A DNA stretch of 1,326 nt from Escherichia coli (GTDB lineage: Bacteria > Pseudomonadota > Gammaproteobacteria > Enterobacterales > Enterobacteriaceae), in the NCBI RefSeq assembly GCF_003334385.1, contig NZ_QOWN01000116.1; one strand, given 5' to 3'. Below the pieces are notes generated by a model. That model was given only the letters and a program-made list of their open reading frames with translations. It was not told the DNA's origin and did not search any database. Within the stretch, counting starts at the first letter, position 1, and the number at the start of each line of letters is the position of its first letter. Shown here one piece after another: positions 1-1,145 of the stretch. Both the position numbers and the translations under genes were made by a program.

Positions 1-773
1 GACGATGCGGCAGCCGTTTTTGAGGATTCTGCGCTGGTTTCCGACGCTTTCGCGTTCGTTTCGGATGTCTTCGCTGCGGAAGCAGACCTCGCTGCTGTGC
101 TGGCCTGTTCAGTGGCTTCGCCAGCCTTCGTTGTGGCTGTTGAAGCGGATGATGCGGCGCTTTCTGCCGATTTTCCGGCGGCGGTGGCACTGGCTGAGGC
201 CTGCCCGGCACTTGTTGACGCGGCACTGGCAGACGACGCAGCCGCTGTTTTTGAGCCTGCCGCAGCTGAGGCGCTCTGTCCCGCTGCCGTCTCAGAAGAC
301 CTGGCGTTCGTCTCGGACGTTTTTGCCGCCTTCGCGGAATTTGCTGCCGCCGTTGCCGAGGAAGCTGCGCTACTGGCGCTCGAGGATGCGTTCGTTTCTG
401 ATGATTTTGCCGCCTCTTTTGAAGCCGACGCATCCCGGGCTGAGATGGCAGCTTCTGACGCTTTCGTAGTCGCGGTGGATGCAGAAGTGGCTGCTGATTG
501 TTGTGACGCTGCAGCATTCGTTTCAGACGTTTTCGCGGCACTGGCACTGGTAGCTGCCGCGCTTTTTGAGGACTCTGCAGCGGCAGCACTTTTTAATGCT
601 TCAGTGGCCTTTGCTGATGCCGTTCCTGCGCTGGAAGACGCTGACTGAGCCGACGACGCGGCCTGTCCGGCTGACGAGCTGGCTGCGCGTGCTGAGTCTG
701 CAGCATCAGTCGCATGGGTTGCCGCCTCACGGGCAGATGTGCCGGCATCGCTGGCTGACTTCTTTGCGGCTGC
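1..773 (-). repeat. In-frame 42-nt (14-codon) tandem periodicity inside stf, encoding an Ala/Ser/Thr-rich shaft (about 18 units to the window edge)
   Basis: With the protein in 14-residue blocks from residue 133, positions 2, 6, 9 and 13 of each block are Ala in about 58 of 68 cases by my manual count (e.g. DAGTSAREAATHAT, DAADSARAASSSAG, QAASSAQSASSSAG, SAASSATAAANSAK, AAASSASAASTSAG, SAASSASTATTKAG). The motif AAK(T/S)SETN recurs at residues 203, 245, 273 and 357, spaced by multiples of 14. Confidence 0.75.
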
Positions 774-1145
774 CGTGTTCTGTGCCACTGCGGACGCGTT
801 ACGCGCCACCTCTTCCACCATCAGCTCAAAACGGCGCAGAGCCTCCGGACGGGCATCATCCTCCGTCATGGCACCGAGAAAATCATTCAGCGTACCGGGT
901 CGGGAATCTTCATACACGGTGATGGTCCCGGCATGTGACGGCGGGAACCCTTCCACCAACAGAATAACGCTGTACTGACCGTACTCAACGTCCATGCTGT
1001 AACGCCCGGCTTCATCCGGATTTTCAGATGCCAGCGTGTTCACCACCACCGTGGTACTGTTACGTTTAGCTTTCAGCTGGATTGTGCAGTTCTGCACCGG
1101 TTTTCCTGTGCCGTCTTTCAGTACACCTGAAATCTTTACTGCCAT
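1..1145 (-). CDS. stf: Side tail fibre protein Stf (lambda Stf/orf-401 family), N-terminal 381 codons; ATG at 1145..1143, last complete codon 5..3, 3' end beyond the window
   Basis: Manual minus-strand translation from ATG (complement of CAT at 1143-1145) gives 381 codons with no stop: MAVKISGVLKDGTGKPVQNCTIQLKAKRNSTTVVVNTLASENPDEAGRYSMDVEYGQYSVILLVEGFPPSHAGTITVYEDSRPGTLNDFLGAMTEDDARPEALRRFELMVEEVARNASAVAQNTAAAKKSASDAGTSAREAATHATDAADSARAASSSAGQ... continuing as an Ala/Ser/Thr-rich repeat region. The N-terminal ~120 residues match the lambda Stf N-terminus as I recall it, and the gene sits immediately downstream of lom as in lambda. A G-rich SD precedes the ATG. Confidence 0.9.
   Translation of the reverse strand, partial: MAVKISGVLKDGTGKPVQNCTIQLKAKRNSTTVVVNTLASENPDEAGRYSMDVEYGQYSVILLVEGFPPSHAGTITVYEDSRPGTLNDFLGAMTEDDARPEALRRFELMVEEVARNASAVAQNTAAAKKSASDAGTSAREAATHATDAADSARAASSSAGQAASSAQSASSSAGTASAKATEALKSAAAAESSKSAAATSASAAKTSETNAAASQQSAATSASTATTKASEAAISARDASASKEAAKSSETNASSSASSAASSATAAANSAKAAKTSETNARSSETAAGQSASAAAGSKTAAASSASAASTSAGQASASATAAGKSAESAASSASTATTKAGEATEQASTAARSASAAKTSETNAKASETSAESSKTAAAS

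Follow-up and report, generated by a model that had tools for sequence, protein, structure and literature searches.

A very probable lom-stf junction of a lambdoid Escherichia coli prophage, encoding a side tail fibre with a long Ala/Ser heptad rod

The side tail fibre of Ur-lambda, Stf, was described in 2025 by cryo-EM and cryo-ET. Residues 1-94 were resolved as a six-stranded beta sheet with a helix, and the proximal part of the protein was divided into a collar domain (residues 1-91), a flexible linker (92-101) and a trimeric coiled coil beginning at residue 102 (PMC12617516). The coiled coil leads into a hinge and, beyond it, an OmpC-binding, gp37-like distal part. The Ur-lambda virion carries four side fibres, each of them a trimer, and twelve collar copies encircle the tail where the last gpV ring meets the gpM ring; there, the beta4-beta5 loop contacts E63 of gpV as well as K2, W6 and R80 of gpM (PMC12617516). 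In an earlier study, Ghosh et al. (2012) described a PfN domain (PF08400) followed by an Ala/Ser-rich 'PCoil' with heptad periodicity, whose lengths differ by multiples of seven (PMC3368898). This homologous region is experimentally a trimeric coiled coil (PMC3368898). Working chimeras have been obtained by joining N-terminal Stf to the fibre ends of P2, K1F, K5 and KL106 (PMC11338833). The combination of a collar, an Ala/Ser heptad rod, an exchangeable distal end and Tfa is, thus, already known from biochemistry (2012), engineering (2024) and structure (2025), and the modular build has also been treated by Brodel et al. Neither the heptad register nor the steps of whole heptads in rod length are new, both being in the 2012 paper (PMC3368898).

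We analysed a stretch of 1,326 nucleotides of E. coli DNA, hereafter the window. With high confidence, we read it as the lom-stf junction of a lambdoid E. coli prophage, holding the N-terminal 381 of the 990 residues of an intact Stf. The window matches 4,860 of 5,426 complete E. coli genomes, at a median of 2 places and up to 14 places per genome with a match. An identity of at least 99% was reached in a single genome, that of strain SCU-104 (100%), and all statements on what lies past position 1 rest on this one genome. Its gene order is gpJ, lom, stf, tfa. The features located in the window are collected in Table 1.

Table 1. Features of the window, with coordinates counted from its first letter.
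Feature	Coordinates	Strand	Details
lom 3' end (Ail/Lom outer-membrane beta-barrel)	1210..1326	-	last 38 codons; TGA stop 1212-1210
Intrinsic terminator	1157..1183	-	inside the 64-nt lom-stf spacer; terminator scan
Probable ribosome-binding site, purine-rich GGGGGGAA	1147..1154	-	adjoins the stf ATG; putative function, judged from sequence
stf codons 1-91, collar (tail-attachment) domain	873..1145	-	six-stranded beta sandwich and short helix
stf codons 92-101, flexible linker joining the collar to the rod	843..872	-	residue limits as in Ur-lambda (PMC12617516)
stf codons 102-381, proximal alpha-helical coiled-coil rod, AxxSAxx heptad	1..842	-	autocorrelation, register, AF2
Weak isrG matches	1-145, 471-561, 574-794	+	antisense to heptad-coding DNA

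The upstream gene was identified from several lines of evidence. Its translation in the window ends in the C-terminus ...DGFIVGVGYKF, and the region aligns with the 3' end of lambda lom. The gene at this position in SCU-104 is annotated as an Ail/Lom family protein, and the full-length product matches PHROG 108 ('Lom outer membrane protein') with an E-value of 1.3e-109. The terminator in the spacer consists of an 8-bp GC-rich stem at 1183-1162 (AGCCCGCC/GGCGGGCT) and a T run at 1161-1157, and the hairpin is retained in both the MFE and the centroid folds. Compared with lambda, the spacer differs in the loop and at one stem pair (G-C to G-U), and is otherwise nearly base-for-base the same. A 'terminator' is also annotated under the window match in the related phages Ayreon and mEp460. 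A Trp_leader match over the same hairpin (Rfam, 21.7 bits against a gathering threshold of 41) was dismissed as chance or compositional. The lambda equivalent of the purine-rich stretch preceding stf is GGGGTGAA, nearly identical to it. The promoter scan of the window found none. By the general pattern of late transcription in lambda, the terminator 3' of lom would stop lom transcription in the lysogen, and Q-antiterminated late transcription would continue past it into stf.

The stf frame lies on the minus strand and is open for 381 codons, from an ATG at 1145-1143 to position 3, beyond which it runs off the window; because it leaves the window, it is absent from the list of open reading frames. 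Pfam PF08400 ('Prophage tail fibre N-terminal') spans residues 1-134 of the product from end to end (E 2.5e-72), a CarboxypepD_reg-like fold is also matched in this N-terminal domain, and the best PHROG is 3279 ('tail fiber protein', E 1.2e-130). The product is 84% identical to lambda orf-401 over residues 1-326 (BLASTP), and a phmmer search matched residues 1-94 to the Ur-lambda tail fibre chain of PDB 9e7m/9mgh (E 1.5e-51). In an AlphaFold2 (AF2) model built on 43 homologues, six strands (residues 3-8, 20-26, 37-41, 48-53, 56-64 and 70-77) and a short helix (86-90) are followed by coil at 91-100, where pLDDT falls to 59. The beta4-beta5 loop, DVEYGQY, is the same in this Stf and in lambda, and residues E54 and G56 are nearly invariant across the 43 homologues. 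On this likeness, the collar would dock on the tail where gpV and gpM meet. A reading of the window made from its sequence alone (the sequence-only reading) had counted 381 open codons, as we do, and had assigned about 120 residues to a lambda-like attachment part. The likeness is confirmed, since 110 of the first 120 residues (92%) are the same as in lambda, but the part itself is smaller, at about 91 residues according to the structural and AF2 boundaries.

Behind the linker, the protein changes to a composition dominated by three residues (Ala 38%, Ser 26% and Thr 12% over residues 135-381). The autocorrelation of residue identity peaks only at lags 7, 14, 21 and so on up to 56, with z-scores of 6.5-9.1 against 500 shuffles and z = 9 at lag 7. 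The strict Ala register starts at codon 127 (window position 767), and in the SCU-104 protein the rod extends past the window to about codon 455, its heptads being free of stutters over residues 127-455. Within residues 135-455 of the full protein, all 46 heptads have Ala at position a, position d is Ser in 78% and position e is Ala in 72%. In the AF2 model, residues 101-362 form a single uninterrupted helix, and pLDDT exceeds 90 over 120-260. By analogy with the PCoil region, the rod is inferred to be a trimeric coiled coil. The 'repeat shaft' proposed in the sequence-only reading, thus, stands as a heptad periodicity in the protein and falls as a set of tandem copies: Tandem Repeats Finder returned for the window only a two-copy match of 15 nt and no coding-region array, which leads us to reject a tandem DNA array as the basis of the shaft. 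The short direct DNA repeats lie mostly at multiples of 21 nt from one another.

The rod is long. The EEVARNAS anchor and the first KGIVQLS motif lie 353 residues apart here against 248 in lambda, a difference of 105 residues or exactly 15 heptads, with which the alignment offset agrees. The same distance is 241 or 248 in other homologues, with a single exception of 292, values that carry limited information on rod length, as the first homologue search returned mostly partial proteins from contig ends and only 24 reached KGIVQLS. In a search of 1.8 billion proteins, from which 150 representatives were taken, strict Ala-heptad runs of 3-47 heptads were found behind the same N-terminal domain, and the present rod, with 47 strict Ala heptads, is the joint longest among them. 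Six of the 150 representatives bear the rod behind a different N-terminus, and phases a and e of one register account for 85% of all Ala-heptad runs in 128 proteins with the N-domain. At 0.148 nm per residue, the 15 extra heptads would give about 15-16 nm more reach. Most database homologues of the N-terminal region of Stf are labelled 'partial' and end at contig edges; evidently, multi-copy stf genes break short-read assemblies inside the Ala/Ser rod.

Beyond position 1, stf continues in SCU-104 to 990 codons without interruption and carries no pseudogene flag. It is followed by a tfa gene of 193 codons, whose start overlaps stf by one base and whose product is 93% identical to lambda orf-194. 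The C-terminus and tfa had been placed past position 1 in the sequence-only reading, which proposed looking for a continuous frame of 770-1100 codons followed by tfa, and this is the arrangement found in SCU-104. A frameshifted or truncated stf pseudogene is ruled against by the 381 open codons in the window and the 990 in SCU-104. Pfam divides the full protein into PF08400 (1-134), three PF03406 copies (462-590), a Collar domain (761-808) and weak PF03335 repeats. The PF03406 repeats (L001:21565-21960, stf codons 462-593) are three tandem copies of 44 residues, the first two identical at 41 of 44 positions, and lambda DNA 20710-20805 matches three successive places in this region. The triplet is a recent tandem duplication in the hinge/distal-shaft region. 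It is followed by a middle module of approximately 170 residues (about 590-757) without a lambda counterpart.

The distal end is of the gp37 type. Residues 744-990 align to the whole T4 gp37 tip 2XGF (E 2.3e-82), the tip has seven HxH motifs, and identity to lambda orf-314 is 70% across the C-terminal 233 residues. The distal tip loops (about residues 875-925) resemble neither those of lambda nor those of T4 closely, so that OmpC as the receptor of this Stf is only a guess, by analogy. The adjacent Tfa chaperone would fold the gp37-type needle tip, and four Stf trimers would provide fast reversible adsorption, most likely to OmpC, before gpJ engages its own receptor.

A comparison with lambda DNA shows how the modules are joined. 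Between a point within lom and stf codon 303 the two are 86% identical, about codons 304-404 have no counterpart, codons 405-491 are 79% identical, about codons 592-757 are again unmatched, and the tip and tfa are 80-93% identical. The homology of several phages (Ayreon, mEp460 and PhiR70_1) breaks off within the rod, at query position 1020 (about codon 280). Any in-register crossover in the rod would leave a working rod, which would make the rod a recombination-tolerant joint. A rod of variable length would, in this way, connect a conserved attachment module to exchangeable distal modules.

The prophage itself sits in SCU-104 at the DLP12 site, at the tRNA-Arg next to intD, and measures about 47 kb from att to att (loci L003:13616-14871 and L001:28848-28894). 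Its attR, between ompT and envY, repeats at least 47 nt of the tRNA 3' end in the same orientation. On the opposite strand, 3' of tfa, lies a cargo of a manganese catalase gene, two ferritin-like genes and genes for a general stress protein and a SAM methyltransferase, together with ompT. A porin gene of the prophage, annotated 'ompC' (L003:28486-29568), occupies the nmpC position between quuD and essD. Lambda and T4 tips of the type found in this Stf bind OmpC, and a phage-encoded porin replacing the host porin could bear on superinfection exclusion.

Judged by its gene content, the prophage looks nearly complete. An intact stf may, however, be idle. One alternative, which we hold to be possible but the less likely state of affairs, is that this is a defective prophage without tails, in which stf is a recent remnant or serves as recombination stock for other lambdoid phages. 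Gene M (L001:13629-13958), otherwise 97% identical to that of lambda, carries TGA as codon 79 in place of the TGG for W79 in lambda, and RefSeq marks it as a pseudogene; the TraR-like gene is frameshifted as well. Since the Stf collar docks on the gpM ring, with R80 of gpM among the contact residues (PMC12617516), a tail defect is probable: the prophage may build no tails, so its own virions may never carry Stf. Three places in SCU-104 match the window, and other lambdoid prophages could, hence, exchange the gene. Against this alternative, all remaining genes for the head, tail, lysis, replication and integration are annotated as intact, the lesion in M is a single base change and hence recent, TGA is leaky in E. 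coli, and stf and tfa are free of lesions. A further proposal goes beyond the alignments and strikes us as a long shot: that rod length has been tuned so that the tip reaches its porin through a thicker O-antigen or capsule layer of the natural host, and that an M-defective prophage retains its intact stf-tfa as a host-range cassette which lambdoid prophages in the same cell can exchange.

Fibre genes switched by invertases exist in Mu, P1 and e14. The sequence-only reading had remarked in general terms that stf genes may be recombined by invertases, and this remark is the sole support for stf being part of a switched host-range system (Mu G, P1 C or e14 P-type) with alternative C-terminal ends downstream, an explanation that we consider extremely improbable. 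From intD/attL to attR and in the flanks, no recombinase or invertase other than intD is annotated, and none appears in the prophage of about 47 kb or elsewhere in the 41-kb locus. Only one tfa is present, unrelated genes on the opposite strand start 120 nt later, and the SCU-104 locus lacks a second fibre end in inverted orientation with a tfa of its own. The AAACCNNGGTTT core (up to one mismatch) of hix/gix-type sites is absent inside stf-tfa, though this is a weak test. The invertase caveat does not apply to this gene.

The plus strand carries an open frame at 97-648 (183 aa), antisense to stf, which is the counterpart of the hypothetical orf206b annotated in the lambda record (lambda 20147-20767); that it is a real overlapping gene is scarcely credible, and we reject it as a by-product of Ala/Ser codon composition, given that synonymous-codon shuffles of stf yield antisense open stretches of 221 +/- 66 codons against the 214 observed (as long or longer in 286 of 500), that its product is of low complexity and rich in Ala, Phe and Asp, and that the promoter scan found no promoter-like site. 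The orf206b annotation in lambda is probably spurious too. The Rfam scan was run at E-values up to 1, and all matches fell below the gathering threshold. Those to isrG, a Salmonella sRNA, scored 12.7-19.2 bits against a gathering threshold of 100 and were dismissed as chance or compositional; they probably reflect the likeness among the coding repeats of Ala/Ser rods in prophage fibre genes, rather than an sRNA.

Our preferred reading, a lambdoid lom-stf junction with the N-terminal part of an intact fibre gene, is that of a textbook arrangement, and its significance beyond correct annotation is slight. What is particular to the allele is its long rod, its non-lambda middle module and its divergent distal tip loops. 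In practice, the analysis yields clear-cut domain boundaries in window coordinates, and the long rod and differing tip may be of minor use for chimeric Stf delivery particles.

Four described systems can be set beside this locus. With T4 gp37 (tip 2XGF), Stf 744-990 shares the collar, the HxH needle and the C-terminal ...NIAFNYIVRLA. The two differ in their N-terminal attachment part and shaft, which are unrelated, and in the tip at about 875-925, which is divergent with indels; T4 is, moreover, a myovirus with a long fibre, while the fibre here is a siphovirus side fibre. The cryptic prophage DLP12 of E. coli K-12 has the tRNA-Arg site next to intD in common with the SCU-104 prophage, as well as the neighbouring quuD, porin gene, essD/rrrD/rzpD, nohD, a ybcY-like methyltransferase and ompT, with envY, nfrA and cus lying outside. 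In K-12, the head, tail and fibre region of DLP12 is mostly deleted, leaving only tfa fragments, whereas the whole of this region is present in the SCU-104 prophage. The EPcl collagen-like fibres of E. coli O157:H7 (PfN-PCoil-Col-PfC; PMC3368898) share PF08400 and the Ala/Ser heptad coil. Unlike EPcl, the 990-residue Stf has no Pfam match to collagen PF01391 or to PF06820, and its rod is much longer and, with Ala at position a of all 46 heptads, stricter than that of EPcl, whose periodicity was termed 'loose' (PMC3368898). The last comparison is with Ur-lambda Stf/Tfa, corresponding in lambda PaPa to orf-401 plus orf-314 and to orf-194. The frame is split in two in lambda PaPa, as the sequence-only reading had stated and the lambda record confirms, whereas the SCU-104 stf is uninterrupted; lambda has eight HxH motifs against seven here, and the distal loops also differ. 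Common to both are the J-lom-stf-tfa order, the 64-nt lom-stf spacer with its hairpin, and the succession of collar domain, linker and Ala/Ser coiled coil.
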